Shown piece by piece: positions 27,341 to 42,346 of a DNA stretch of 64,000 bases. The stretch is taken from NCBI GenBank assembly GCA_965277715.1, contig OZ255836.1, forward strand, positions 2,048,001-2,112,000, read 5' to 3'. This DNA comes from Gammaproteobacteria bacterium. GTDB taxonomy: Bacteria; Pseudomonadota; Gammaproteobacteria; JBCCGL01. The position numbers were made by a program, and so were the translations under genes. Under the pieces are notes generated by a model. The model did no database searches. It saw nothing but the letters and a program-made list of their open reading frames with translations, and was not told where the DNA came from. Numbering within the stretch: the first letter of the stretch is position 1; each line of letters starts with the position of its first letter.

Positions 27341-29506
27341 ATGAAAAATGGCAATTTAATTGCAATCAGCTCCAATAAAACAGCTTCACAGTTTGAACAC
27401 GTCCCTCTACAGGCGGCATCGCTGGATATATGGGACAAGAAATACCGACTAAAATCACGCGACGGTGAGGTTATTGACGTTGACATCGACGGTTCTTATC
27501 AGCGCATTGCACGCGCCCTATCCGATGTGGAGGCACGCCCGGAATTACAGGCTGAATGGTATGAAAAGTTTCTGTGGGCATTGCGCCATGGTGTTATTCC
27601 GGCAGGCCGCATCGTATCCAATGCGGGTGCAATGGCACATAAACCGGCAACATCGACCATCAACTGTACAGTATCCGGTACGATTGAAGACTCTATGGAC
27701 GATATTCTTAACAAAGTCCACGAAGCCGGACTAACCCTCAAGGCAGGCTGTGGTATCGGCTATGATTTTTCTACCCTGCGCCCTAAAGGGGCCTATGTTT
27801 CAGGTGCTGGCGCGCACACATCGGGACCGCTGTCCTTTATGGATATCTACGACCGTATGTGTTTCACCGTATCCAGCGCGGGGGGGCGCCGTGGTGCACA
27901 AATGGGCACGTTTGATGTACGCCACCCGGACGTACTCGATTTTATCCGCGCCAAACGTGAAGATGGTCGCCTCAGGCAATTCAACCTGTCACTACTGATT
28001 ACCGAAGATTTCATTCAAGCGGTTAAACAGGATGCCGATTGGCAACTCGCCTTCCCAATACAATCCAGTGAAGCCGATGAAGACGACAGCCTGTTGAAAA
28101 GTGACCGCATCATCTGGCGTGAATGGCCAACGCACAAAGGCCTGGTACTCAACGAGACCGGGCTGGTCGCGTGTAAAGTATTCACCCGTATTCGTGCGCA
28201 ACGGTTGTGGGATGTCATCATGTCATCCACCTACGACTATGCCGAGCCGGGTTTTATCCTGATTGATAAAGTCAACGAAATGAACAACAACTGGTTTTGT
28301 GAAGACATTCGCGCAACCAATCCCTGTGGAGAACAGCCTCTACCACCTTACGGTTCATGCCTGCTCGGTTCGATCAACCTCACCCGCTTTGTACAACACC
28401 CATTTACCGAGCACGCCCGCTTCGATTGGGATAACTACCGCAAAGTCGTCGCAATCTTCACCCGCATGCTGGACAATGTTGTCGAAATTAATGGCTTGCC
28501 ACTGGCAGGGCAAAGCGATGAAATTCTGCGCAAGCGTCGCCACGGCATGGGCTACCTTGGTCTGGGTTCGACGATCACCATGCTGTGCATGGCGTATGGT
28601 TCACAGGAATCACTCGAATTTACCGAACAAATCACCCGCGAGCTTGCGATTACCGGCTGGCAAACATCCCTCGACCTCGCCACTGAAAAAGGCCCAGCGC
28701 CTATTATGCTGGAAACGTTTACCGTCGATGCAGAGATGTTGCGTAAGCGCCCGGAAATGAAACGCGACGGCTACAAACTGGGGGACAAAGTGAGCGGGCG
28801 GGTATTACACGCCAAATACAGTCGCTACATGCAGCGTATCGCCGAGCAAGAACCTGAACTGGTCGAAGCCTTGGCGGAAACCGGCGCACGCTTCACGCAC
28901 CATAGCTCAATTGCTCCCACAGGCACTATTTCCCTGTCACTGGCCAATAATGCCAGCAATGGCATCGAGCCAAGCTTTGCTCATCACTATGCACGCAACG
29001 TTATTCGCGAAGGTAAAAAGAGCAAAGAAAAAGTCGATGTCTACTCGTTTGAATTACTCGCCTATCGACAATTGATCAATGCCGATGCTGCACCCAGTAG
29101 CGATGAACCAGACAATATGTTACCTCATTACTTCATCACCTCAGACGACATTAAACCCAGGCAACACGTCGACATTCAAGCGGCGGCGCAAAAATGGATC
29201 GACTCATCAATTTCAAAAACAGCCAATATCCCAACCGATTTTGCCTACGAGGATTTTAAAGAAATTTATATGTACGCCTATGAAAAAGGCCTAAAAGGGT
29301 GCACCACCTTTCGCTTCAACCCAGAGGCTTTTCAGGGCGTGCTAGTAAAGGAGGAAGACCTCAAAAACACACTGTATGAATTTCAGCTCGAAGACGGTAC
29401 AACACTCAAAGTAAAAGGCAACGAAGAGATCGAATACGATGGTGAAATTCACTCTGCCGCCAACCTCTATGATGCATTAAAAGAAGGCTATTACGGAAAA
29501 CTGTAA
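27341..29506 (+). CDS. nrdJa: Adenosylcobalamin-dependent (class II) ribonucleotide reductase, large subunit
   Basis: PAGRI.SNAG, STINCTVS, GGRRGAQM, ATNPCGEQPL, SIAPTGTIS, GLKGCTTFR. Confidence 0.95.
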   Translation: MKNGNLIAISSNKTASQFEHVPLQAASLDIWDKKYRLKSRDGEVIDVDIDGSYQRIARALSDVEARPELQAEWYEKFLWALRHGVIPAGRIVSNAGAMAHKPATSTINCTVSGTIEDSMDDILNKVHEAGLTLKAGCGIGYDFSTLRPKGAYVSGAGAHTSGPLSFMDIYDRMCFTVSSAGGRRGAQMGTFDVRHPDVLDFIRAKREDGRLRQFNLSLLITEDFIQAVKQDADWQLAFPIQSSEADEDDSLLKSDRIIWREWPTHKGLVLNETGLVACKVFTRIRAQRLWDVIMSSTYDYAEPGFILIDKVNEMNNNWFCEDIRATNPCGEQPLPPYGSCLLGSINLTRFVQHPFTEHARFDWDNYRKVVAIFTRMLDNVVEINGLPLAGQSDEILRKRRHGMGYLGLGSTITMLCMAYGSQESLEFTEQITRELAITGWQTSLDLATEKGPAPIMLETFTVDAEMLRKRPEMKRDGYKLGDKVSGRVLHAKYSRYMQRIAEQEPELVEALAETGARFTHHSSIAPTGTISLSLANNASNGIEPSFAHHYARNVIREGKKSKEKVDVYSFELLAYRQLINADAAPSSDEPDNMLPHYFITSDDIKPRQHVDIQAAAQKWIDSSISKTANIPTDFAYEDFKEIYMYAYEKGLKGCTTFRFNPEAFQGVLVKEEDLKNTLYEFQLEDGTTLKVKGNEEIEYDGEIHSAANLYDALKEGYYGKL

Positions 29507-29571
29507 CCTCGATATCACGATAAAATGACCCTTACAATTTCAGTTCCAGGCATAACCACAGGCACAACACC

Positions 29572-30291
29572 ATGACCACCAAGATTGGTAAAAAAATTGT
29601 CGGCTACCGGGTTGCTCCCCAAGATGAAAAAGCTGCAGCAACCGCTTCAAATACGCAAACATCGCCCATCAAAACGGCCGATGTTATCCATATGCATGAA
29701 AGCGTGGTACGACCGGAGATGCTTATCGGCTCCACCTATAAGGTCAAAACACCGGAAAATGTATCGCAACATGCGCTCTACATTACCATTAACGACATTG
29801 TGCTCAATCAAGGCACCGAACACGAATTGCGCCGTCCGTTTGAAGTGTTCATCAACTCCAAGAGTATGGATCATTTTCAGTGGATTGTAGCGCTGACACG
29901 CATTATTTCTGCGGTATTTCGCAAAGGCGGAGATGTTACATTCCTGGTTGAAGAGCTACGTTCAGTATTTGATCCCAGCGGGGGTTATTGGAAAAAGGGA
30001 GGCAAATTTATGCCTTCATTGGTCGCTGAAATTGGCGATGTAATCGAACAGCATATGATTCAAATTGGCCTGATTAAATCACCTCACCTGGACCAACACC
30101 AAAAAAAACTTATCGACGATAAACGTGCCGAATTTGAACTGACAGCCTCGCCCGGTAACGACGATACACCTGACCAGGAAGCGCTGTTTCCCGCCAGCGC
30201 GTCTCTGTGTCGACAATGCAGTACCAAAGCCGTGGTACTAATGGACGGTTGCATGACCTGCCTGAACTGCGGTGACTCCAAATGCGGATAG
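29572..30291 (+). CDS. nrdJb: Class II RNR second subunit (TSCPD domain, C-terminal Cys cluster)
   Basis: ALYITINDI, RRPFEVFINSK, VFRKGGD, C-terminal CRQC...GCMTCLNCGDSKCG. Confidence 0.93.
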   Translation: MTTKIGKKIVGYRVAPQDEKAAATASNTQTSPIKTADVIHMHESVVRPEMLIGSTYKVKTPENVSQHALYITINDIVLNQGTEHELRRPFEVFINSKSMDHFQWIVALTRIISAVFRKGGDVTFLVEELRSVFDPSGGYWKKGGKFMPSLVAEIGDVIEQHMIQIGLIKSPHLDQHQKKLIDDKRAEFELTASPGNDDTPDQEALFPASASLCRQCSTKAVVLMDGCMTCLNCGDSKCG

Positions 30292-30338
30292 ATGCATACA
30301 CCTCCTACTCCTCAATCCTATAGCTGTGGAGATTTGAA

Positions 30339-30584
30339 ATGAAATGCCATAACTGCACTACCACTATGGATCTCACCCGCTCAGCTTCCAGTGAACGCAG
30401 TAAAACGCAGTGGTATCGATGCCCAGTATGCCACTCCGAGCACATGAGCACCCGCCTGTCGATTGATGAAGATCAGCGGTACATGGACTTAGACCCATAC
30501 AGCAACTTCATAACCGCCAATAACCAGCACATCAACGCAAACGATGAGAGTAACTTTAAACTCAGACAGCTAGACTATCATTAA
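30339..30584 (+). CDS. Small zinc-ribbon-like hypothetical protein
   Basis: CHNC...CPVC pairs; GGAG RBS before the ATG. Confidence 0.6.
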   Translation: MKCHNCTTTMDLTRSASSERSKTQWYRCPVCHSEHMSTRLSIDEDQRYMDLDPYSNFITANNQHINANDESNFKLRQLDYH

Positions 30585-30591
30585 CCCTCAA

Positions 30592-30909
30592 AAGAAAGCT
30601 ATGCACTTAAACCCATTTTACCCAGATGAATACTTGTGGAACTTAGGAGGTGTTTACTAAAGCCTGAAACAATACCAAGATGCCATCAATACTATTGATC
30701 AAATGAATAACCCCATCACAGGAAACCGTATTCTTACAGCCAGCTATACCCAATTTGGTGAAATAGAAAAGGCCCGGCAAAGTGCACAAAAAATACTCTC
30801 AGCACATCCAGATTTTTCACTGGATGAATGGACCAAAATGATGCCAGATAAACATATGGAAGACACTATGCATTTTATCGAGGGACTCAGTAAAACTGGA
30901 TTACACTAA
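30592..30909 (+). pseudogene. C-terminal remnant of a cyclase-TolB-TPR paralog
   Basis: KKAMHLNPFYPDEYLWNLGGVY*SLKQY...HPDFSL...PDK...IEGL aligns with the C-terminus of 33235..35001; in-frame TAA at 30658-30660; 5' part missing. Confidence 0.88.
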
Positions 30910-30987
30910 TCACAAGTAGCATTATGAGCAATATGTACTAATATTTATTTTTAACATACGCCTAAATATCGCGGTCAGGATTTCCCG

Positions 30988-31626
30988 ATGAACCAACAAA
31001 CCACCGAAAGCACTCAACATTTCTACTTAAAGCCCTTTACGGCTGACCATTTGGCACAAGTTGCCGAGTGGTACGAAAACATTGATGATTTATCCATGAT
31101 TGAAAGCAAGGTGCCGGTACCGGTGAATGTCCAGTCACTTGAAAAAGCCTGGCATCACAACCTTTCACAAACAGAACCCCAAACCAGTTACATATTCTTT
31201 ATAGTGAGTAAGAGTAGCGAGCCGATAGGATATGTCGGCTTGCAGGACATAAATTATGCGCATGGGAATAGCGTGGTTTTTATCTATGTAAGAAAAGATA
31301 AGCGCTATTGCGGCATTGGGTTACGGTCTGTTGCATTAATGCTTGACCTGGCCTACGACCAACTGCGGTTACATCGGGGTACCACCTACGTTTATACGCA
31401 CAATACCCCTTCAGTAGCACTACTACAGCGTTGTGGATTTATCGATGAAGGGCGTATGCGGGAAGCCTGCTTCGTTGATGGAAAACACAATGATGTTAGG
31501 ATAGTAGGGATATTGGCAAAGGAATGGCATGCATTGAGAGAATCACTAAGCGATTCGCTTAGTCGACAAATGATTGTTTCAATTGGCAATAACGTAGATA
31601 ATAGATGGAATTGGCCTTCGGTATAA
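30988..31626 (+). CDS. GNAT acetyltransferase (RimJ/RimL-like)
   Basis: IGYVGL, RYCGIG, HNTPSVALLQRCGFIDEGRMRE acetyl-CoA-binding pattern. Confidence 0.85.
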   Translation: MNQQTTESTQHFYLKPFTADHLAQVAEWYENIDDLSMIESKVPVPVNVQSLEKAWHHNLSQTEPQTSYIFFIVSKSSEPIGYVGLQDINYAHGNSVVFIYVRKDKRYCGIGLRSVALMLDLAYDQLRLHRGTTYVYTHNTPSVALLQRCGFIDEGRMREACFVDGKHNDVRIVGILAKEWHALRESLSDSLSRQMIVSIGNNVDNRWNWPSV

Positions 31627-31650
31627 GCAAAATATTTATTGAGTAATCCA

Positions 31651-31744
31651 CTAGGAGTCTGTCGGATTCAGGACTGCTCTACTGCGGAAAAGTCGATTTG
31701 GCCCTTTCCCTCGCTACCAGCGCCTAAACCCGACAGACTCCTAG
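31651..31744. mobile_element. 94-bp MITE with CTAG ends
   Basis: CTAGGAGTCTGTCGG (31651-31665) and CCGACAGACTCCTAG (31730-31744) perfect inverted repeat; homolog at 42753-42890. Confidence 0.8.
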
Positions 31745-31767
31745 CATTCGTTTGAGGGGATTTTTTG

Positions 31768-32038
31768 GTGACTAGTTGTAGCAATAATAAAAACAAGCGA
31801 GAGCTAAAAGCTATTTTATTTGCAGACGTGGCCAACTACACCCTTTCAACCCAAATGATGCTGATATTATGGCCGATATGGCTGATGCACTTGGACATGC
31901 AGGGCGTTCATATGCAAAAAAATACTTAAATCCCATCCAAATTTTTCACTTAAACACTGGATATCAATGATACCAGACAAGTCTCCTGATGACTCAGCGC
32001 ATTTTGTTGAAGGACTTCGAAAAGCAGGTTTATCATAG
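31768..32038 (+). pseudogene. Internally deleted cyclase-TolB-TPR paralog
   Basis: Three joined pieces: MTSCSNNKNKRELKAILFADVANYT / NPNDADIMADMADALGHAG / HPNFSLKHW...PDK...VEGLRKAGLS*, matching the start, a TPR segment and the end of 33235..35001. Confidence 0.9.
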
Positions 32039-32315
32039 TTGGTAAAAGGTAAATGTTATGCACCGACCAATGTATAACACTTACCATAACTACATACTAT
32101 TTAGCCCCCTCCCTTCAACCTAGCCCCACTTACTCTAGCCCCACTAGATTGCATCTGTTCCTGAGCTAACCTTGATAAACGCGTATCCCCCTCATCTAAA
32201 AGCTGTTTGTGCTCTGATCGACGTACCTTGTCAACCGCCGTGTTGAGGTGTGCGCTTATGTGATAACGATCATCCTATATTCCGCAGTTAAAATTGTTTA
32301 TATTTCTCCAAGTAT

Positions 32316-33060
32316 TTGAAAATTTTTAGAAAAGCTATGAAATTATCCGATTCATCCGTTCACCCAAAGAGTGAAGAAAAAAACTCACCGAAAACGGGCT
32401 TATCAGAAGCGATAGAAGGTCAGCTTGAAGTAGATACCTACGCAGGTAAAGTGTTTGTAGAGTGGGCCCCGGATTCGGCGGTAACGCCATTAGGTCAACT
32501 GCCCTTTTTCATCCACTTTCTCAAGTGGGAAGAGCGTTTTGATCCGTGGGTGGAGGTTTGTCCGCTGAGTGATAGGAGCAACAATGCACCGGCTAAACGA
32601 GATGTATTAGGCAGCCTGTTTTTATCGATACTGTCTGGGCATAGACGGTATGCGCATTTAGCGACGTTGCAAGCAGATCGGGTGAACACGAAGTTATTGG
32701 GTATGGATAAAGTGGTGAGTGATGATTCGGCGATCCGTACCTTACAAAAGATGCCGGAAGAAGCGTCTATCCACTGGTTGCAGGAACACCTGCTAAGCAG
32801 TTGTGATCCCCTGCTACGCTAGCCGTGGATACTGGGTGTGGATGTCACGGTAAAGCCGCTGTATGGCAGTCAGGAAGGAGCGAAAGTCGGTTACAACCCC
32901 CACAAACCCGGGAGGCCTTCACACACGTATCATAACCTACCTTATAGCGAGTTTACGGTTGGTGTTGGAAGTGGAAGTACAAGCAGGCAATCAAAGTGTA
33001 GCGTGTTATTGCGCACCGGGTTTACTGGAGCTGTTGGATCGTTTGCCCGAGGGCTGCGTA
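32316..33060 (+). mobile_element. IS1380-like DDE transposase pseudogene (truncated)
   Basis: VTPLGQLPFF, SILSGHRRYAH, DVTVKPLYG.QEGA.VGYNPHKPGRPSH; in-frame TAG at 32820-32822, frameshift near 32933, 3' half missing. Confidence 0.8.
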
Positions 33061-33234
33061 ATAAATATTTATCGTATTGCTGAAAAAAAAATACCGTAGC
33101 AACATTCACAAACTCAAGGGCAAGATCTCTCAAAAAACACTTTGTTTTTTCTATTGCTTGTATACAATCTGGATATTAGAATATACCTATTTTAACTTAG
33201 CAAACCCACTAGCACCCATCTGGAAGATTCTTTA

Positions 33235-35001
33235 GTGGCACATAACAACAAAAATAAACGAGAACTGAAAGCAATCCTATTTGCCGATGTAGTAGGCTAC
33301 ACGCGCCTAATGCAAGACAATGAAGAAGCAACTCATGTAGCAACCACCGAACTAGTCGATATTTTCACAAAGGGTTGCGATAAACTGGGTGGCGAAATGC
33401 TTGAAATAAGAGGCGATGGTATCTTTGCATTATTCACCAGTGCTATAAACTCAGTTCGGTTTGCAGATAAAACACAAGACCTTATCGAAAAACATAATCA
33501 AAAATACGAAGAGCATCGAAAAATACGTTTCCGTATAGGCATTCACTTAGGTGATGTTGTAAAAAATAATAAACACTATTATGGAGACAGTATCAATATC
33601 GCCTCACGCATTGAGGGTTTAGCCGATCCAGGTGGCGTGTGTATTTCCAGCGCAATATACGAACAAGTTAAAAGTAACGGTAGTTTTGGTTACGAATACC
33701 TCGGACCGAAAAAATTAAAAAATGTTACTGAGCCTATTAATACCTACCGAATTGTTAAGGATACAAATACAGCCACTCTTGTAGCAAGCCCACGAGACCC
33801 AGAAGAGAGAAAACAACTTATACCAGAGGAAATTCGACCTTCCGTTGCTGTTTTACCATTTAAAAACACTGATGGAAATCCAGCATTTGATTACTTTCCT
33901 GACGGTATAACTGAAGATATTATTACCAACCTATCCAGGTTTCATAATTTGTTTGTAATCGCACGGAGCTCTTCATTTGTATACAAGAATAGTGTCTTAC
34001 CTGCAAAAGTTATCGGAAGAGAGTTGAACGTTCGCTATCTAGTAGATGGTACTGTTCGCCTAGCAAATAACCGCGTCAGAGTTTCTGTCCAGCTAGTAGA
34101 CACAGACAAAGGTTCAACTATTTGGGCAGATAAATACGATCGCAGTCTTGATTATATTTTTGAGGTGCAAGATGAAATATCGGCAATTATTTGTAATATT
34201 ACTGCCGTCAAAATTGAAAAAGAAGAACGTGCCCGCTCATCACATGTCTTACCTGCAAACTTACACGCTTATGAGTATGTTCTCCAGGGTCAGCAACAAA
34301 TATATTTATATACAAGAAAAAGCGTTAGCTCGGCTCGCAAACTTTATGAATCAGCTATAAAGTATGATCCTCGCTATGCAAGAGCATTTGCATCAATGTC
34401 ACGCACTTTAAACCTAGAATGGCGATATTCATGGTCAAATAACCCAGAAGAGTCACTATCACGTGCACTTGACCTTGCTAAACAAGCTGTTTCAATGGAT
34501 GATAGCGACGCGAGAGGGCATTCTGAACTTGGTTTTGTGTACCTCTATAAAAAAGAACATGACCTATCTATTAATGCCTATGAAAAAGCTCGCATCATCA
34601 ATCCAAATGATGCTGATATTATGGCGGATATGGCTGACGCTCTTGTCCATTCAGGCAAACCTGAAGAAGCTCTAAAAATAATAAAAAAAGCTATGCACTT
34701 AAACCCATTTTATCCTGACCAGTATTTGTGGCACCTAAGCGGAGCACAGTTCAAACTAAAACAATATAGAGATGTTATATCTACAGTAAATAAAGCAAAT
34801 AACCCAACAGAAGGAGAGAGATTACTCGCAGCTAGTTTTGCCCACCTCGGCGACCTAGATAAAGCTAAGTGGTATGCCAACCGAGTTTTAGAAGCTCACC
34901 CGAATTTTTCTTTAAGGCATTGGCAAGAAATACTTCCCGACAAATACGAGGAAGATGCAAAGCACTATATCGAAGGCTTACACATGGCAGGCCTTCGATA
35001 A
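33235..35001 (+). CDS. Class III adenylate/guanylate cyclase with TolB-like and TPR domains
   Basis: AILFADVVGYT, EIRGDG, FRIGIHLGDV, YGDSINIASRIE; PSVAVLPF..DGITEDIITNLSRF TolB-N-like; C-terminal TPRs; AT-rich. Confidence 0.92.
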   Translation: MAHNNKNKRELKAILFADVVGYTRLMQDNEEATHVATTELVDIFTKGCDKLGGEMLEIRGDGIFALFTSAINSVRFADKTQDLIEKHNQKYEEHRKIRFRIGIHLGDVVKNNKHYYGDSINIASRIEGLADPGGVCISSAIYEQVKSNGSFGYEYLGPKKLKNVTEPINTYRIVKDTNTATLVASPRDPEERKQLIPEEIRPSVAVLPFKNTDGNPAFDYFPDGITEDIITNLSRFHNLFVIARSSSFVYKNSVLPAKVIGRELNVRYLVDGTVRLANNRVRVSVQLVDTDKGSTIWADKYDRSLDYIFEVQDEISAIICNITAVKIEKEERARSSHVLPANLHAYEYVLQGQQQIYLYTRKSVSSARKLYESAIKYDPRYARAFASMSRTLNLEWRYSWSNNPEESLSRALDLAKQAVSMDDSDARGHSELGFVYLYKKEHDLSINAYEKARIINPNDADIMADMADALVHSGKPEEALKIIKKAMHLNPFYPDQYLWHLSGAQFKLKQYRDVISTVNKANNPTEGERLLAASFAHLGDLDKAKWYANRVLEAHPNFSLRHWQEILPDKYEEDAKHYIEGLHMAGLR

Positions 35002-35080
35002 GATTATAAGCTAGTGCACTGAAAGTCAGTGACTTTGATAAAGCTATTTTCCCGCCAAATAGAATACATGCTGTAGACAG

Positions 35081-35530
35081 CTAACTACCTTTTACATGCA
35101 TGCCTTTTACATTCATGCCGCTAGTTTTCAGTTGCTGGTTAGCTGATAGGACAGGTGCCAAAAGTATTTCCTCAAACGCTCCTGTCTCTAAATCTAACCG
35201 AATAGAAAAATCCGCTTTATCATATGTCCAGACACGAATTCCAGCCTGCTCAATCTCTAACTCAGGGTCTGGTTCAATAACAGTCCCTGCCTCAGCCGGT
35301 GTTTGCCCATCCCCGTGCACCATAAAAATGGCAGGACGAGGCATATCATAGTAATGCCCTTCATACTCAAAGCCATAGACACGCGCCAATTGAGCATTTT
35401 CAGCGGACAATTGGCTTTGCAAAGCAGTTGTCGCCCCAGCACCTTGAGAACTCGCCCCTTCAAGCTTTAGATCGGTTACCACTCGCCCGTATAGACGAAT
35501 CACAGATTGATTCAGTAATGTTTCACTCAT
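35081..35530 (-). CDS. Hypothetical protein with C-terminal GMxVK repeats; candidate YcaO/TfuA substrate
   Basis: Last gene of the ycaO operon with AAGGAAA RBS; ends SGMNVKGMHVKGS. Confidence 0.75.
   Translation of the reverse strand: MSETLLNQSVIRLYGRVVTDLKLEGASSQGAGATTALQSQLSAENAQLARVYGFEYEGHYYDMPRPAIFMVHGDGQTPAEAGTVIEPDPELEIEQAGIRVWTYDKADFSIRLDLETGAFEEILLAPVLSANQQLKTSGMNVKGMHVKGS
35090..35119 (-). repeat. 15-bp tandem repeat encoding GMNVK/GMHVK
   Basis: Minus-strand GGCATGAATGTAAAA-GGCATGCATGTAAAA, one mismatch. Confidence 0.85.
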
Positions 35531-35561
35531 TAGTGTTTCCTTCTTTCGGTTTGTTGTTAAA

Positions 35562-36932
35562 TTAGTGTCGCAAGTTTAACCGCGCCCGCTGAACTCTTTC
35601 GTAATACGTTAGTCGGCTGTTATTTTCAGCCAACTCAGTCGGTTGCAGCTGTAGTATACGCGTGGAGTGCATGTGGCTTGTGATCTCACCAGGCGCTTCA
35701 AACTGTGGCCCAGCTTCTATTAAGCCGACACCTCTACGCGTTGTATTATGTATTATAATTTCTTTATATGCCCCTTCTGTGTATTCACAATCCACATTAA
35801 TAAGGGCTTCAACTACATCAGCATACCTAAGACACTGAGGTGATAATCTCAAACAGACTCTGGCGAGATAAGTGCCTACAGTATCACGTGCATCCATTAA
35901 TGACTGCTTAAAACCCAGCGGATCAGCCGCAAAGGCACGATCAAAGCCTACCTGGACAAGGTATTGTTTTTCTGGCACATATTCATGTTCATGTGCGAAT
36001 TCTTTTAATGGCTGGCTAATCAACTGCCTCGATAACAATATTTCCTGAAAAATATCGACAAAGATATCAAATATAGCCCCTGTCAGTGGCTGCCCTAACG
36101 CATGTTCATCACTCCAACCATCAACAAAATTCCGCATAGTCAATGTGTTAGCCGCCAGCCTAATTTGCTCATTTCTGGAGAGTTCGGCTATCCGGTTTAG
36201 CCTGTTTAGCGAATACAAATTGCCCGAGGTATTTTCCAGCAATTCATCCAATATCGAGTCAAAGTGCATCACCGCAATAATGGCCGTTAAATCCGCCGCC
36301 GATTCATGGAACCCATAGTATTCGCCTGTTTGATTTTCCGGCTCAGGTACACCCACCTGGCTATAAATAATGCCATGGCCTATCTCGTGTGCAATAACGT
36401 CAAAATTCAGGCAAAAATGACTAAAAAAGCCATCCTCCGTCGTATGGGAACCCGCCTCCATAAACCCGTAACCAATCTGCGCATTTGGAAAGTGCGGCAG
36501 TATCGCCAACTCAAGGCGGTCATAATGGTGATCAAAATGCCAGGGTATAGAGCAGCCGAAATACTGCTCCCAAACATCTAAGGTGAACCGCGCACAACCG
36601 AATAAGTGCGCCAGTTTAAATTCGTGGGAGTCAACTGGGATGTGATCAAAGTGGCCGTGCTTGTCTGGCATTGCAGGTGGATAAATATCCCCCGTCCACG
36701 GGGGCAACAGTAGATAAGAACCGTAGCTGCCACTGTGGCAACCATATTCCTTCACTTTATCAATAGGGTATAACGCATACATTCGATCATCAGCCGGGCC
36801 TGGACCAACCGTTCCAGCCGGGCAGGAAATGTATACCTGTTCCGGTTCATTATCTGCATCGACAAATGGAGCCTGTGGAAACAACCGAAACCGTGTCCCA
36901 CCTGAATCATTATATTGAACTACCTTGTCCAT
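35562..36932 (-). CDS. Gluzincin (M4/M36-like) zinc metallopeptidase
   Basis: NFDVIAHEIGH (HExxH), GFHESAAD third ligand, DEHALG; no signal peptide. Confidence 0.8.
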   Translation of the reverse strand: MDKVVQYNDSGGTRFRLFPQAPFVDADNEPEQVYISCPAGTVGPGPADDRMYALYPIDKVKEYGCHSGSYGSYLLLPPWTGDIYPPAMPDKHGHFDHIPVDSHEFKLAHLFGCARFTLDVWEQYFGCSIPWHFDHHYDRLELAILPHFPNAQIGYGFMEAGSHTTEDGFFSHFCLNFDVIAHEIGHGIIYSQVGVPEPENQTGEYYGFHESAADLTAIIAVMHFDSILDELLENTSGNLYSLNRLNRIAELSRNEQIRLAANTLTMRNFVDGWSDEHALGQPLTGAIFDIFVDIFQEILLSRQLISQPLKEFAHEHEYVPEKQYLVQVGFDRAFAADPLGFKQSLMDARDTVGTYLARVCLRLSPQCLRYADVVEALINVDCEYTEGAYKEIIIHNTTRRGVGLIEAGPQFEAPGEITSHMHSTRILQLQPTELAENNSRLTYYERVQRARLNLRH

Positions 36933-36980
36933 ATTATTTTTTGATCTGCCTTATATTATTTATAGCTTCCGCACACCTTT

Positions 36981-38354
36981 TTACTGGCTTTCCCGTTTCA
37001 TTGCAAGCTCAAAAAAGTGCTGTTTTTTTACCAATTGGTAAAAATCCTCGCGCCGATGGAGGCCTATTTGCAGTAAATAATCATCAAGGTTAGCTGGAAT
37101 GCCCTTACCCAATTTTGACTCAAAATACCAGGCAAGTAATTGCGCAGGCACGATATCAGACGCTAGTTCACCAGAAATACAAGCGGCCCGCTTCGCTTCA
37201 GCACACGCTTTGAGCGCATTATACTCACCACTAAGGCGCAGTTCGTTTAACAACAAATGAACACTCTCATCATCCAGGTCATTCTCAACCGCTTTGCACA
37301 ACTGCTCATCCTGCAAAGCCTGTTGCAGGTTTTCTAGCGTCCAGTTATTTTGTTCAATCCACTGGTCAAGCTGAACACGCGTATACAACCCCAAGTTTTC
37401 CCGCCATGCTTGCAGCTGTTGGCACATTTGCCTGTCACCAATTGCTATGCGTTTGCGCCCCGCCTCGTGCAACGCCAGTTTTTTAAGACGAGCACGCAAC
37501 ATAACCTGACGATAATGTAATGGCGCCAACCTGAGTTCATCGATAATGAGCTGCTCTATACCAGCAACAAGTTGCTTACTCTCTACATGCGATTTTTCCG
37601 CTTTACCTGCCAGTGCATGCCCTGTTACAACGCTATCCCACGCCACTGTCCATTCAAATGCATAGTCGCAACGCATCGGAGCGGCTTCAGAGGAAGAAAA
37701 CGCTGCCAATGCCGCCAACAAAGCTTCAGCATCCTGACATTTTAAGTCCTGCTCCCCTCCCGGCAACCAACGTTCAAATGCCGACAACATATGCGCTTCA
37801 GCACCTGCCTGCTTCGCTGCGGCTACCACACACAACCATTGGCGTTTTTGATAAAAAATAGACTTTGCTGCCGCAATTAACAAATCCGCATCCTGCTTAC
37901 TCACCACTGATTCAGTCAGCGCACGACTTACGGTCGCACGGACATTGACCATAGGAAGAGATAATGACAAGTAGCCCAACTCTGCAGGGCCGTGTAATAC
38001 AGCTACTTCATCATCGTCTTCAAGCACACCATCGCGATAACAGGCAAAAATTTCACCCACACCCCGCATACCGAATGAATGCAATTCAGCAGCGCGCAAC
38101 GCCCCCATACTACTGGCACCAAACACATGAATACCACGCGACATAGCCCAAAGAATTTCTTTGTGCCATACGGAGGGAACACCCTCAAAATAACCATCGA
38201 TGATGGCTATCACATCAGGTGCTGTCTGTGCTGCACGGTACACATCCCCCTGCGAAACTGGGGCTTGCCATTCAACACCTTGCACCGCTTCAACCGCATC
38301 ACGGGAAATACTCGGCCCGGAAAATACAATAGTTTTCACTTGTACTTCATTCAC
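36981..38354 (-). CDS. tfuA: TfuA-like protein with long C-terminal extension
   Basis: IVFSGPS, QGDV, IDGYFEGVPSVWHKEIL, GASSMGALRAAEL, DDDEVAVLHGP, NVRAT. Confidence 0.93.
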   Translation of the reverse strand: MNEVQVKTIVFSGPSISRDAVEAVQGVEWQAPVSQGDVYRAAQTAPDVIAIIDGYFEGVPSVWHKEILWAMSRGIHVFGASSMGALRAAELHSFGMRGVGEIFACYRDGVLEDDDEVAVLHGPAELGYLSLSLPMVNVRATVSRALTESVVSKQDADLLIAAAKSIFYQKRQWLCVVAAAKQAGAEAHMLSAFERWLPGGEQDLKCQDAEALLAALAAFSSSEAAPMRCDYAFEWTVAWDSVVTGHALAGKAEKSHVESKQLVAGIEQLIIDELRLAPLHYRQVMLRARLKKLALHEAGRKRIAIGDRQMCQQLQAWRENLGLYTRVQLDQWIEQNNWTLENLQQALQDEQLCKAVENDLDDESVHLLLNELRLSGEYNALKACAEAKRAACISGELASDIVPAQLLAWYFESKLGKGIPANLDDYLLQIGLHRREDFYQLVKKQHFFELAMKRESQ

Positions 38355-38401
38355 ATTAGCCCGCTATCCCATCCTAAAGAAAGTGTGCAAAGTGCTATGC
38401 A

Positions 38402-39259
38402 TCATAGTTTTTTCTTCTTATCCCGCCAGAACTCCATTTTCTTATATTTATAGTACAGGCTGTTCCCCAAAACCTCACGGGCATCCCAGGTTCTATCTCT
38501 CAGTGCAGGCCCCAGTTTATGCAAATCTGGAATACCATAGGCGCCTGCATCGTTCTCGATAATTTCTTTCTTTATTTTATCAAAATAGTGTGTTTCATTA
38601 TCACCCCATATAGATAGATCTTTACGACCGATAAAACCATATATCTGATCGATAACTTCTCCTGGCTTGGCAATTAAATCTTTTCTCTCTACCAGTAGAA
38701 GGTTTTTTTTACTTTTACTTAAATATGTTTTTTTAAGATTTGCATAACACCAACCAACGCTAGTGGGAATAGTCGGGTTCATCATTAACAGGCAGCGATT
38801 TTCATCGCTCAGTTTTTTATGCTCATTCAGCAGTTGTGCATCAATAAATGAATTGTGGTCGGGATTTTTTCGTATCAGCATAAGAAAGGACGCCAGGCAA
38901 TCTGTAATATTATCGACAGTACAGATTACTTTCATCTCCTCTTGTAAAATTTCCCTGGCAGCGTCAATAGGGTCTTTCATATGCCAGGCCCACGATTTAT
39001 CAAAAATATGCGTTTCCTCCCTGTGTTGATACATACCATCCCGCACACTGCGCCATAGATTTGGCAGTTGATCCGGGTGTTTATAAGCTTTCAGTGTTAC
39101 TGCGTTTTTCCGCCACTTGATCAAAATCTCGCTGATGATTTCACTCAATGGAGAAGCCGGAGAAACATGCATATTTTTATTTTGATTCAGGATTTCACCT
39201 AAAACTGTACTGCCGGTTCTTGGCAGCCCTGCCAGGTAATAATATTTCTTTTGCTTCAC
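38402..39259 (-). CDS. PAPS-dependent sulfotransferase family protein
   Basis: N-terminal LAGLPRTGSTVLGEILNQN 5'-PSB loop, DKS motif; more AT-rich than its neighbours. Confidence 0.8.
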   Translation of the reverse strand: MKQKKYYYLAGLPRTGSTVLGEILNQNKNMHVSPASPLSEIISEILIKWRKNAVTLKAYKHPDQLPNLWRSVRDGMYQHREETHIFDKSWAWHMKDPIDAAREILQEEMKVICTVDNITDCLASFLMLIRKNPDHNSFIDAQLLNEHKKLSDENRCLLMMNPTIPTSVGWCYANLKKTYLSKSKKNLLLVERKDLIAKPGEVIDQIYGFIGRKDLSIWGDNETHYFDKIKKEIIENDAGAYGIPDLHKLGPALRDRTWDAREVLGNSLYYKYKKMEFWRDKKKKL

Positions 39260-39337
39260 ATTTAACTCGCTTGAATTTACAACGTTACCCTGCTTATTCT
39301 TGCAATCGTACTTTCACTTTGTGCAATCTGCAACGCC

Positions 39338-40591
39338 TCATAAAGTAGCCTGCACCTCGCGAGCACGCGCTCCAGGGATATAATCATCATCATGCGGACC
39401 TTCAAGCCCAGGGATGACAATTCTTACCACTGGAATATTGAACGTTGGTTTAGTGAGATTAATACAAATCACTTCGTCTATTTCAATACGACGCAACTGG
39501 GTTAGCATCCAGTCAACATCTTCCTGAAAGGTGGAAAACTGTCGACTGTCGATGGTGGCAAAATCAACACACCCATTACCCTGCCCGGCAATATTGCGAA
39601 ACACCCGGTTTTTTTCCTGCAGCCTTGCCTGTGTAAATTCAGCATGGGTTAAATCGTCACGCGATCCGGCAATATAGGTTGTGCGCACTTGCACGGCTTC
39701 AGTAAGCGCCCGCACCAGCGCAATCGATTTACTCGGGTGACACCCGGCGCCCAACCCAGGGTGTGCTATAGGGTTGCGTTCATCAAGCAATACACACTCA
39801 AAACAGGCAACACCTGTATCACTACTAATATCCCAAACCGTTATCGATAGATCGGCTGTATGCAACTGCTCAATCAAGCGACGACAAAGCATATCATCCA
39901 CTGAACCAAGATCAAGTTTATCTGCATCGCGCCCCAGTTTACTTTTTTGGTGCCATAGGCTGCTCGCATCGCGTTCAATCACTTCACATATCGCATGCGA
40001 TACCGCCTCCAGGTAGTGGTTACCCGATGCCAGGCCATTACTACTCTGTGCAAAGCACCCACTGCCAGAAGGCGATGGGTGGTTATAGCAGGTATGCACA
40101 ATTTCATAGGGCAACCAAGTGTTTTTTGTATCGAGAAGGTTGCTGCCTTCAATCCATAAAATAGGCCATGTTGGTTGATACCGACTGCCGCACATTGCCG
40201 GCAAGCGGTCAATGTTGACTAAATGCTGGTTATCCGACAGATCATCAAAGCTACCCAGCTTTAGTGGAAGTTCAATGTGCTCAGCATGCCACGACTCAAC
40301 TGATTCCATCAGCCCTGAAGCTTTGGCGGCGTCTAATGTCAACCCTTTCCCTTGGGAAACGGCAATAGAGCGGGAATTAGGGCGGCATACCATCACCACC
40401 GGTATACCAATACGATCCAATCCGGTAACGTTGGCGATGCGTGTGATACCCATTACAGGCATAAACGGCATTACATTGGCCAGTGTTTCTGCCGGTTCAA
40501 TCAGAAGGTGTGCACCGGTTTGGTAGCATTTTTCCGCACGCTCTAATGCTATTGGAGGGTATTGTTGTGGAGATTCAGTATGCTTTGGCAT
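39338..40591 (-). CDS. ycaO: YcaO-family protein (TfuA-associated, thioamide-forming type)
   Basis: GITRIANVTGLDRIGIP, SQGKG, MESVE, SSNGLASGN, EVIERDA, RALTEAVQ.R...IAGSRDDL, PVVRIVIPGLE. Confidence 0.95.
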   Translation of the reverse strand: MPKHTESPQQYPPIALERAEKCYQTGAHLLIEPAETLANVMPFMPVMGITRIANVTGLDRIGIPVVMVCRPNSRSIAVSQGKGLTLDAAKASGLMESVESWHAEHIELPLKLGSFDDLSDNQHLVNIDRLPAMCGSRYQPTWPILWIEGSNLLDTKNTWLPYEIVHTCYNHPSPSGSGCFAQSSNGLASGNHYLEAVSHAICEVIERDASSLWHQKSKLGRDADKLDLGSVDDMLCRRLIEQLHTADLSITVWDISSDTGVACFECVLLDERNPIAHPGLGAGCHPSKSIALVRALTEAVQVRTTYIAGSRDDLTHAEFTQARLQEKNRVFRNIAGQGNGCVDFATIDSRQFSTFQEDVDWMLTQLRRIEIDEVICINLTKPTFNIPVVRIVIPGLEGPHDDDYIPGARAREVQATL

Positions 40592-40724
40592 CGCGTTGTA
40601 CTGTGTTTAACTCTGTCATCCGCACAGCAGGCCCGTGGCATGAAAGACTGTCAATAAACCATCCACATTCGATGTCAACCAGGCTACACTTGAAAGTACA
40701 AGACAGATCTATCAAGCAGACAAA

Positions 40725-40943
40725 GTGCATAAACTCACCTTTGAGCTATCGATCAGTAGCGATCAATGGCTACATTATTACGCAGGCCACGCCAATGCAG
40801 TGCGTGTTGTGGCCGACAACGGCAAATCACTACAACTACCCGCCAGCGCACTGCGCCCGTTTATTTTGCACAATGGTATACACGGTCGATTTGTCGTGCG
40901 TTTTGACCAATACAATAAGCTATTGGGTATTAATCGTTTATAG
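40725..40943 (+). CDS. DUF2835-like small protein
   Basis: YYAGHANAVRV...GKSLQLPASALRPF...GIHGRF pattern. Confidence 0.75.
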   Translation: MHKLTFELSISSDQWLHYYAGHANAVRVVADNGKSLQLPASALRPFILHNGIHGRFVVRFDQYNKLLGINRL

Positions 40944-40984
40944 AGAGTGTACAATAACTGGTTTTACATTTTACGGTATCACAC

Positions 40985-41272
40985 ATGAGCCAACTCCAGC
41001 TTTCCGCAGAACTCGTTCGCCAACTCCACCAATCACTGGCCGACCATGACGATAATGCCGAAGACCCCGGTGTAGCCGCACAATATATGGCAGCCATTAT
41101 TGGCTTCTTACTTGGTGAACAGGATATGCCAGACACACAAAAGGAGGAGATACTTGAACAGTTGTTTGCCTTTGCAAAGCATGTTGCAAATGACGTTAGC
41201 CAACAGAAAAAAGCCCCTCCAGCTCCTCCACCACAAAATGCATTTGGTGTATGGAAACCTGGCATGAGCTAA
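40985..41272 (+). CDS. Conserved hypothetical protein
   Basis: Helical 95-aa ORF ending AFGVWKPG; in line with neighbouring genes. Confidence 0.7.
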   Translation: MSQLQLSAELVRQLHQSLADHDDNAEDPGVAAQYMAAIIGFLLGEQDMPDTQKEEILEQLFAFAKHVANDVSQQKKAPPAPPPQNAFGVWKPGMS

Positions 41273-41337
41273 ACCCATACATGAATTTGTTTTTTTCCCT
41301 ATAGTTATTTCCCCTTTCCAGATCGAGTATCTCTCTA

Positions 41338-41616
41338 ATGTCACAAGCCAGCGCACGCCATATCTTGGTCAACAGCGAAGAACAATGCAATACACTGAAA
41401 CAACAAATCATCGATGGTGCTGATTTTGCCGCTGTCGCCGCCGAGCACTCACAGTGCCCTTCTGGCAAGCAGGGCGGTGAACTTGGCACTTTTTCACCTG
41501 GCCAGATGGTACGTGAATTTGATACTGTCGTATTTAACGAGGCAGTGGGTGAAGTGCATGGCCCGGTACAAACACAGTTCGGCTACCACCTGATCGAAAC
41601 CACCTCACGTACCTGA
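41338..41616 (+). CDS. ppiC: Parvulin peptidyl-prolyl isomerase
   Basis: ASARHILV, HSQCPSG..GGELG.F.PGQMV, TQFGYHLI. Confidence 0.95.
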   Translation: MSQASARHILVNSEEQCNTLKQQIIDGADFAAVAAEHSQCPSGKQGGELGTFSPGQMVREFDTVVFNEAVGEVHGPVQTQFGYHLIETTSRT

Positions 41617-41641
41617 GCAATTTGTCATAACAGGCACCAAC

Positions 41642-42346
41642 ATGACCGAGACCGTCTTTTACCAGGATAGCTACGCCACCCACTGCGATGCACATATCAC
41701 AGCGATCACTGATAATACGATTACGCTTGATCGCACTGTTTTTTACCCGATGGGAGGCGGCCAACCCGGTGATACCGGCACACTGATCAGCCAGAGTGGG
41801 GAACATATTGCCGTTACCGATACCCGAAAAGAAGGAGACGATATTGTCCACTGGGTGGAAGTCGATTTATCAACCATTGCTGTCGGTGATCATATTACTG
41901 CCGAAATAGACTGGGTTCGTCGGCACCGCCATATGCGCATGCACACTTGCCTGCACCTGCTATGTTCGCTGATTGATGCCCCCGTAACCGGTGGCTCTGT
42001 TGCCGCCGACAAAGCACGGCTGGATTTTGATTTACCCGAATCCACACTCGATAAGGAAGCTCTGAACACATCGCTAAAACAGCTAATCGATAACGATCAT
42101 ACTATTAGTATTGAATGGATTAGTGACAAAGCGCTGGAACAACAACCAGAGTTGGTGCGCACCATGTCAGTTAAGCCTCCCACAGGGCATGGCAAAGTAC
42201 GACTAATCAATATCGAGAATGTAGATCTACAACCTTGTGGCGGCACGCATTTGCAATCCACTGGTGAAATTGGCGCAGTGCGCGTACGTAAGATCGAAAA
42301 AAAGGGCAAACAGAACCGGCGCGTGATTCTGGTATTTGACGAATAA
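41642..42346 (+). CDS. Alanyl-tRNA editing protein (AlaX)
   Basis: FYPMGGGQPGD, HMRMHTCLH, QPCGGTH. Confidence 0.92.
   Translation: MTETVFYQDSYATHCDAHITAITDNTITLDRTVFYPMGGGQPGDTGTLISQSGEHIAVTDTRKEGDDIVHWVEVDLSTIAVGDHITAEIDWVRRHRHMRMHTCLHLLCSLIDAPVTGGSVAADKARLDFDLPESTLDKEALNTSLKQLIDNDHTISIEWISDKALEQQPELVRTMSVKPPTGHGKVRLINIENVDLQPCGGTHLQSTGEIGAVRVRKIEKKGKQNRRVILVFDE

Follow-up and report, generated by a model that had tools for sequence, protein, structure and literature searches.

A conserved proteobacterial YcaO-TfuA cassette with a predicted thermolysin-like protease, a repeat-tailed candidate precursor and a cyclase-TPR gene

A YcaO-TfuA gene pair lying beside a putative protease, a small protein with a repeating tail and a nucleotide cyclase raises the question of whether these genes form a unit and, if so, what that unit would make. 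Such a locus occurs in a stretch of 64 000 nucleotides from a gammaproteobacterium (assembly GCA_965277715.1, contig OZ255836.1, positions 2,048,001 to 2,112,000 of the forward strand), referred to here as the window, in which coordinates are given unless a locus is named. The five closely spaced minus-strand genes described there by a sequence-only reading were all found as open reading frames (ORFs), with intergenic gaps of 31-78 bp. In the direction of transcription they encode a YcaO protein of 417 residues (39338..40591, minus strand), a sulfotransferase of 285 residues placed between ycaO and tfuA (38402..39259, minus strand), a TfuA protein of 457 residues with a C-terminal extension of about 240 residues (36981..38354, minus strand), an HExxH protein of 456 residues that we call Pep (35562..36932, minus strand) and a protein of 149 residues, p149, which consists of an N-terminal domain and a repeat tail and is the candidate precursor or substrate (35081..35530, minus strand). 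The convergent cyclase-TPR gene (588 residues; 33235..35001, plus strand) and, upstream of it, a gene for a GNAT acetyltransferase (212 residues; 30988..31626, plus strand; PF13302, E 1.4e-14) were likewise present where they had been placed, by Pfam matches. The window was found to hold one copy of a conserved proteobacterial cassette, in which ycaO, tfuA, a zinc-protease gene and a small-protein gene follow one another and are joined by a cyclase-TPR gene lying either on the same strand or facing them. This cassette is widespread but undescribed.

A pattern scan with Pep over a collection holding one genome per species returned 430 stretches encoding a relative, and the best 80 of these loci, taken with 10-kb flanks and searched by tblastn with the window proteins, supplied the co-occurrence counts. 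Their hosts are gammaproteobacterial metagenome-assembled genomes (MAGs), Arenicellales, Mesorhizobium, the Roseobacter group, Stappiaceae and others; relatives of Pep occur in Ruegeria, Roseibium/Labrenzia, Leisingera, Sulfitobacter and Mesorhizobium. TfuA adjoins Pep in 78 of the 80 loci and YcaO does so in 77, the remaining two and three loci, respectively, ending too early. p149 lies directly behind Pep in 75 loci; four end too early, and a single one (L076) has no p149 despite room for it. A cyclase-TPR gene was found in 66 loci (nine end too early, five have none despite room) and a GNAT gene in 42 (14 end too early, 24 have none despite room), the latter always upstream of a convergent cyclase gene, in 42 of 47 convergent forms and in none of 19 same-strand forms. 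The genes ycaO and tfuA are adjacent in all 77 relatives that show both, and in the window nothing but the inserted sulfotransferase gene comes between them; no cassette among the 80 contains a sulfotransferase gene. As far as the flanks reach, the gene order recurs in 80 of 80 related loci and is thus far beyond chance. The sequence-only reading had rested its proposal on a YcaO/TfuA module accompanied by an HExxH peptidase of its own and by a possible substrate with a repeat tail, and had named the peptidase, the 149-residue protein and the cyclase as the genes that ought to co-occur with it; co-occurrence was found, and co-conservation supports the grouping.

Two of the 80 loci look damaged. 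In L076 (11246-13837 of that locus) the cassette stops inside the 3' end of the Pep gene, against a convergent histidine-kinase gene, and in L051 (10845-11810) the p149 frame continues from an upstream frame and the tail is lost. All-against-all clustering of 5106 ORFs from the loci gave no further conserved family; in this clustering no exporter, sulfur carrier, regulator, dehydrogenase or E1-like partner was conserved. Among 399 sampled genomes of the class, 17 gave a YcaO hit at E <= 1e-30. Pep was present in both genomes with a YcaO identity of at least 49%, and in none of the nine genomes examined at 35-39% identity.

p149 matched no family in Pfam, NCBIfam or PADLOC, and its relatives share a conserved N-terminal domain of about 125-128 residues (with the motifs ETLLS...LFGR, ARIYGFSYEG.YY.L..P.LFLVHG.G and RVWSYDK.D.TIRLD...G.FEQ.LL), after which comes a tail of short tandem units. 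Searched against 1.84 billion proteins, a profile of this domain recovered 587 cluster representatives (50% identity) at E <= 0.001. The best 150 of these are all 133-420 residues long and 102 of them have clear repeats, with Gly in 100 of the 102 units and Arg or Lys in 95; the others of the 150 mostly show either a single unit of the SG...R type or two or three imperfect ones. The family ranges from one unit to more than ten. The tail has a period of five in 61 of 75 relatives, usually in 4-10 copies, and units such as SGARV, SGAKV, GMSAR, GASVR, SGSDLR and SGANL are seen. A small protein with tandem repeats is thus encoded beside the YcaO-TfuA pair, as in a multi-core thioamide RiPP of the thiovarsolin type. 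The window itself has only two such units, its tail reading SGMNVK-GMHVK-GS with five residues to the unit (35084..35122, minus strand).

The codons of these tails were compared. Over 70 tails, identical peptide units share their codon in 42% of cases, against 35% expected from the codon usage of the locus itself, and in none of the 70 tails does sharing exceed 90%. Since synonymous sites are nearly randomised, the units are old and are held identical by selection on the peptide, not by recent duplication; such randomised synonymous sites are what a multi-copy core would predict. The model of p149 has a mean predicted local distance difference test score (pLDDT) of 75.4 with a disordered tail. 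A Foldseek search with the N-terminal domain gave no match at E <= 0.001; in a VIA-align comparison covering 48,161 chains co-chaperonins came out best, but at a Z of 3.1 the resemblance is too slight to build on.

Some further features of the family were noted. The N-terminal domain accepts large insertions, of about 100 residues after the first strand in three Mesorhizobium loci and of about 250 residues in two Denitrobaculum MAGs, and several gammaproteobacterial MAGs carry 60-150 Ala-rich residues between the HG.G and RVW motifs. The type of tail also follows the presence of the acetyltransferase gene. In 41 of 42 GNAT-bearing cassettes the units run basic-hydrophobic-small-Gly (e.g. R-V-S-G) and in none does a basic residue stand directly before Gly, a position it takes in 12 of 19 GNAT-less same-strand cassettes. 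The window, which has both a GNAT gene and a tail of the K-G type, is an exception to this association, which is confounded by relatedness.

What chemistry the tail would undergo is indicated by the two modifying enzymes. The YcaO protein matches PF02624 over the whole profile (positions 1-325 of 325) at 253.2 bits, the cut-off being 25.7 (E 5e-75), and is thus a member of the superfamily, in which it would be the ATP-dependent backbone-activating enzyme of the cassette. Its best NCBIfam model is TIGR03266, for McrA-glycine thioamidation, at 228 bits and below the membership cut-off of 365. The closest relative of solved structure is MJ1094 of M. jannaschii (6pe3; E 9.5e-30), with the azoline-forming LynD at 7.7e-15. 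The TfuA domain PF07812 spans residues 53-171 of the second protein at 163.2 bits (cut-off 30; E 2.5e-48), and this protein is similar to the solved TfuA 6xp8 (E 5e-34) and scores 209.6 with NF033432, the model of a TfuA-related McrA protein, below the cut-off of 235.2. By sequence, both enzymes are closest to the archaeal enzymes that form thioglycine in McrA, where the target is a glycine in a gene-encoded protein. They differ from that methanogen system in scoring below the equivalog cut-offs, in their bacterial hosts, in another substrate family and in the 240-residue extension of TfuA. This extension matched nothing among sequences of solved structures (best E 0.88), and an Atlas search with it found other long TfuA proteins alone (scores 0.76-0.77). 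TfuA occurs in the cassettes in two forms, a long one of about 440-460 residues, as in the window, and a short one of about 230 residues, which by our count from the table is present in 18 of 78 and mostly in the Roseobacter group and Stappiaceae.

Azoline formation was considered as another outcome of YcaO chemistry and set aside, as Cys, Ser and Thr are all missing from many tail units (e.g. GGKVG, GMNAR and the GMNVK of the window); the clustering of the loci, with no conserved dehydrogenase or E1-like partner, disfavours it also.

No Pfam or NCBIfam family matched Pep at E <= 0.01 and PADLOC gave no match, so that it falls in no curated peptidase family. It has 1453 homologs at E <= 0.001, and among 120 of these that were listed most are 48-57% identical, none has a Pfam domain, and every name given by the source is 'hypothetical protein'. 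Pep has the HExxH motif with a downstream Glu: HEIGH lies at residues 182-186 and an invariant GFHES at 207-211, and all 20 sequences compared keep H182, E183, H186, E210 and D214. A structural model of moderate quality (pLDDT 69.6) gave 30 chains at E <= 0.001 in Foldseek, the top ones being M36 and M4 proteases at probability 1.00 (E 7e-6 to 1e-4; template modelling score 0.35-0.59), in agreement with a two-lobed thermolysin fold. By motif and model, Pep is a predicted cytoplasmic thermolysin-like gluzincin (MEROPS M4/M36) of an unnamed family. Pep resembles the thermolysin-like (M4) and fungalysin (M36) enzymes in fold and in the downstream Glu as third ligand, and differs from them in having no Pfam peptidase match and no recognisable propeptide, in an extra conserved N-terminus of about 100 residues and in its setting in a modification operon. 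Residues 1-100 hold many invariant positions (e.g. P44, G45, P46, P77, P78, W79, G93, H94, F95 and D96), and pLDDT is below 50 over residues 1-47 and 64-83; a terminus so highly conserved and so poorly modelled is a hint that these roughly 100 residues may fold on a partner alone. A complex prediction with YcaO (20-417), Pep (1-430) and p149 scored 0.00 against a mark of 0.32 and gave no answer either way.

The cyclase-TPR protein had been read as a fusion of a class III cyclase, a TolB part and TPR repeats. The cyclase domain (PF00211, 50.4 bits, cut-off 21.9), which identifies it as class III, and the TPR families were confirmed; the middle part is only weakly TolB_N-like and remains below threshold (E 0.0034; 17.9 bits, cut-off 22.4). 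Among 65 cassette cyclases the residues corresponding to D18, D61 and N121 are each kept in 64 and R125 in all; the Asp pair is the metal-binding one, and the Asn and Arg are the transition-state residues. In contrast, the position that holds a Lys in two solved adenylate cyclases, which together with a paired Asp presumably specifies adenine, is Lys in none of the 65 (E, D, Q, N, G, S, A or R being found there, and E57 in the window), and the paired position is Asp in eight (H114 in the window). The window cyclase is thus without the Lys and Asp pair by which a strict adenylate cyclase is recognised, and these sequences suggest that the substrate specificity of the cassette cyclases may be unusual or variable. 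Two NCBIfam families, TIGR04510 (mod_pep_cyc) and TIGR03903 (TOMM kinase/cyclase), likewise combine cyclase homology and repeat domains beside peptide-modifying enzymes; the window cyclase matches both only weakly and belongs to neither, at 46.7 bits against a cut-off of 400 and 23.6 against 705.75. When seven proteins of the locus were run through PADLOC, only for the cyclase were the hits meaningful, and these were to generic PycC-like models (best E 2.9e-9). A single hit on TfuA was at chance level (E 0.0089), and the other five proteins had none.

Taken together, these results lead us to a reading that we consider on balance probable, in which the small protein would be a multi-core precursor whose repeat tail is turned into sulfur-modified peptides linked to cyclic-nucleotide signalling. 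The N-terminal domain of p149 would dock the enzymes. With sulfide supplied by TfuA, YcaO would thioamidate the backbone of every unit, probably on the near-invariant Gly or beside it, and Pep would cut the tail into unit-sized peptides. Where present, the GNAT enzyme would cap the N-termini of the peptides, as in the N-acetylated thiovarsolins. As no exporter is conserved, the products probably act inside the cell, and the TPR-cyclase would be the best candidate for a receiver that turns them into a cyclic-nucleotide signal. Each of these steps, from thioamidation and cleavage to acetylation and the sensing by the cyclase, is something that we infer from the genes. A more specific version, which we regard as doubtful, is that the thioamidated unit peptides stay in the cell as ligands of the TPR domain and that the cyclase may make a messenger other than cyclic AMP, the latter being conceivable because the cassette cyclases are without the canonical adenine-reading Lys. 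If true, a ribosomally encoded, sulfur-modified peptide would serve as an internal signal, neither an antibiotic nor a quorum signal.

The closest characterised case is the thiovarsolin pathway (VarA/VarY/VarT) of Streptomyces varsoviensis, and the same logic is inferred here from it. The passages of PMC6511847 on this pathway describe an adjacent YcaO-TfuA pair and N-acetylated tripeptides that end in Arg, bear a thioamide and are cut from a repeating core, in a family of precursors that runs from non-repeating ones to ones with five repeats. According to the same passages, the thiovarsolin protease and acetyltransferase are not encoded in the actinobacterial cluster, and host enzymes release and acetylate the peptides; our cassette encodes a protease and, in one sub-type, an acetyltransferase. 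The two systems, as far as those passages describe the actinobacterial one, differ further in that the thiovarsolin precursor has a short leader in place of the conserved domain of about 125 residues in p149, in that the thiovarsolin cluster has no cyclase, and in that its heme-oxygenase-like, ATP-grasp, amidinotransferase and MFS genes are not among the conserved families of the cassette.

The main rival to the multi-core reading is that the protein stays whole. The thioamidated tail would then itself be the functional part, for example protease-resistant, metal-binding or polyanion-binding, in parallel with McrA or uL16, and the HExxH protein would act as a protease in maturation or turnover, or as a partner without catalytic activity. 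This has points in its favour, as the YcaO of the cassette is closest to enzymes that modify whole proteins, a conserved N-terminal domain of this size that is predicted to fold would be unusual for a leader, and no exporter is conserved. In Pseudomonadota, moreover, the E. coli-type YcaO carries out a comparable backbone thioamidation of a folded protein, the ribosomal protein uL16, recognised by its tertiary structure according to the relevant parts of PMC13063428. The E. coli type is only a distant match to the window YcaO (NF040716, 33.5 bits, cut-off 700). To our knowledge, E. coli has no tfuA gene. However, strict identity of the units over randomised synonymous sites fits many copies of a product better than it fits a structural tail, a protease with an invariant catalytic zinc site lies next door, and the span of the family from one unit to more than ten is reminiscent of the thiovarsolin precursors, as far as PMC6511847 describes them. 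We thus regard a whole, tail-modified protein as unlikely but credible.

Several observations nevertheless weigh against the release of multiple, sulfur-modified signal peptides. Some tails have no basic residue (the SGANL type) or a single copy of the unit, and a single type of product is therefore unlikely. The N-terminal domain of p149 has no known fold or family, which leaves its docking role a guess. About 130 of the 456 residues of Pep were modelled at pLDDT below 50, and Pep stands outside every curated peptidase family. The cyclase is absent despite room in five loci and the GNAT gene in 24, so neither is obligatory, and the thioamide, the cleavage and the ligand are each predicted from sequence. 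In the lineage of the window itself, the tail consists of just two units that differ at one of 15 bases. Contigs of related strains, from the sponge-metagenome runs of four studies in which the stretch was found, add to this: in two of the three runs other than the source (X5 and X6) they carry an extra C at 38061, in a run of four C (38062-38065), that would throw tfuA out of frame at about codon 98, and a loss of 19 bases at 39336-39355 that takes out the stop codon of ycaO. The third run (X4) has neither change and shows a three-base loss at 39383. Because of the minimal, near-identical tail, the tfuA frameshift and the ycaO deletion, the cassette may be losing its function in this lineage.

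These last findings lead to a second alternative, namely that the cassette in this organism is a decaying remnant without present function, whatever the family does elsewhere. The state of the copy speaks for it in part, with two tail units where relatives usually have 4-10, a foreign sulfotransferase gene inside the operon, the tfuA and ycaO lesions in two of three runs and a G+C content of the cassette island that is lower than that of its flanks. The GNAT-cyclase side has also been rearranged and now contains two pieces of cyclase genes, the remains of a transposase gene and a small repeat of dispersed type, all of which the sequence-only reading had noticed. What it had called two dead cyclase paralogs are indeed both there, as gene fragments. 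The first (30592..30909, plus strand) corresponds to cyclase residues 484-587, the C-terminal TPR end, with 54% identity (E 9e-35) and one in-frame stop. The second (31777..32032, plus strand) is a patchwork with internal deletions, in which tblastn recovered residues 2-23 (82%), 455-475 (81%) and 548-587 (50%). Between them lies an element of 94 bp (31651..31744, no strand) with inverted arms of 22 nt that are 91% complementary, which had been called a miniature inverted-repeat transposable element (MITE). It is present once in the window, and in four of four metagenome runs compared the read depth over it rises 4- to 7-fold; in each of these four runs at least 4-6 different flanks meet it and contigs end in it. 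The jump in depth and the many flanks bear out a MITE-like dispersed repeat, of the organism or of the community. The broken transposase between the GNAT and cyclase genes (32316..33083, plus strand) also proved to be real, in that an ORF of 168 residues (32316-32822) resembles an annotated transposase with 42% identity over 90% of its length (E 4e-30); it is IS1380-like by NF033539 at E 5.9e-4, far below the cut-off, and its extent to 33083 is a reading that takes in the next ORF in another frame. Pfam gave nothing significant on this relic or on the first cyclase fragment.

On the other side, all six cassette ORFs of the window are full-length with intact catalytic motifs, and the same arrangement is kept in the sponge metagenomes of four studies. 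Of 30 coding differences between strains (among 40 listed of a total of 86), 21 are synonymous and nine are not, and those listed in Pep and p149 are synonymous in four of four. The window copy is a derived one and is possibly eroding; a remnant already without function seems to us improbable, though by no means far-fetched. The sequence-only reading described the contents of the window accurately; how atypical this copy is, with its two tail units and the broken tfuA of sister strains, it did not see.

A third alternative concerns the sulfotransferase, which had been taken as a member of the pathway that would sulfate the product. The protein is a sulfotransferase by PF00685 (37.7 bits, cut-off 22; E 2e-9), its gene is embedded in the operon, 47 and 78 bp from its two neighbours, and contigs from all three runs other than the source bridge YcaO, sulfotransferase and TfuA, so that the insertion is fixed in the lineage. 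The tail of this lineage, GM[NH]VK, is also unlike those of the nearest relatives. Against this, besides its absence from all 80 cassettes, its G+C content is 39.6%, compared with about 48.5% for ycaO and tfuA, and the family has a neighbourhood of its own. Leaving aside a match of 99% within the same organism, identity to its relatives is 62-78%, and relatives this close outside any cassette make it probable that the substrate is unchanged. A relative was found in one of five cassette-bearing genomes, on another contig, and in one of 400 sampled genomes of the class; in both of two genomes examined it has IspA and then Rsd on one side and a porin gene on the other. Among 54 metagenome loci with a relative, IspA was present in 40, a porin in 32, Rsd in 21 and a Sua5-type gene in 21, and a cassette gene in none. 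The window has a related porin gene 5 kb away, and no IspA, Rsd or Sua5 was found in it. The evidence points to a late insertion that is not a member of the cassette and that probably rides along rather than taking part, and a true tailoring sulfotransferase in this lineage is in our view quite improbable. The order Rsd, IspA, sulfotransferase, porin and Sua5-type gene was seen in many marine metagenome contigs, and its envelope-related neighbours suggest a cell-surface target for this family.

Finally, an arrangement in which the cyclase stands at the heart of a signalling or defence module, with YcaO, TfuA and the protease as its effectors or regulators instead of a biosynthetic line, is highly improbable. 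In its favour are the weak similarity of the cyclase domain to Pycsar cyclase models, the absence of the adenine-specifying Lys from every cassette cyclase, with catalytic residues kept, and the position of the window cassette in an island of low G+C content. The PycC hits, however, do not rise above the similarity expected of class III cyclases in general; no other cassette protein matches a defence model apart from the chance-level TfuA hit; and the cyclase is lacking in five loci with room for it, whereas the four core genes are essentially always together.

The cassette region is set between housekeeping blocks, as had been described: genes for MgtE and a class II ribonucleotide reductase stand at the lower coordinates, and those for an AlaX-like editing protein, DinB and a porin at the higher ones. 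The reductase (27341-30291) is split over two ORFs, a barrel protein of 721 residues and a separate TSCPD-domain protein of 239 residues. An Rfam scan over 30000-42000 matched no family, and among the sequencing runs listed for the operon none was an RNA run. Between 30300 and 41700 there were eight promoter-like sites against 23.6 in shuffles, which is fewer than chance, and nine terminator-like sites against 10.6, which is no excess.

The sequence-only reading had not recognised the gene combination as a characterised pathway, and searching of the literature, supplementary files being outside the search, likewise found no paper that describes it. A genome-mining paper (PMC8120280) reports many uncharacterised proteobacterial 'TfuA-related' clusters; the architecture of the cassette is not mentioned in those parts of its text that deal with them, and its supplements may list it as an unnamed 'TfuA-related' family. 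The TfuA passages of PMC8939145 and PMC9426513 concern other systems.

Characterised YcaO/TfuA thioamide peptides are nearly all actinobacterial. According to PMC8120280, most 'TfuA-related' clusters are proteobacterial and uncharacterised. The cassette described here is one large and sharply defined part of this unexplored TfuA space, with carriers among cultivable and harmless genera. It offers a precursor domain without a recognised fold, a dedicated and predicted cytoplasmic thermolysin-like protease, a built-in acetyltransferase in one sub-type and a genetic link to a cyclase whose substrate pocket appears unusual. Whether peptide modification is tied to cyclic-nucleotide signalling can be tested directly. 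The window, for its part, is a natural experiment, in which the cassette of a sponge-associated lineage has acquired a foreign gene and shows signs of erosion.

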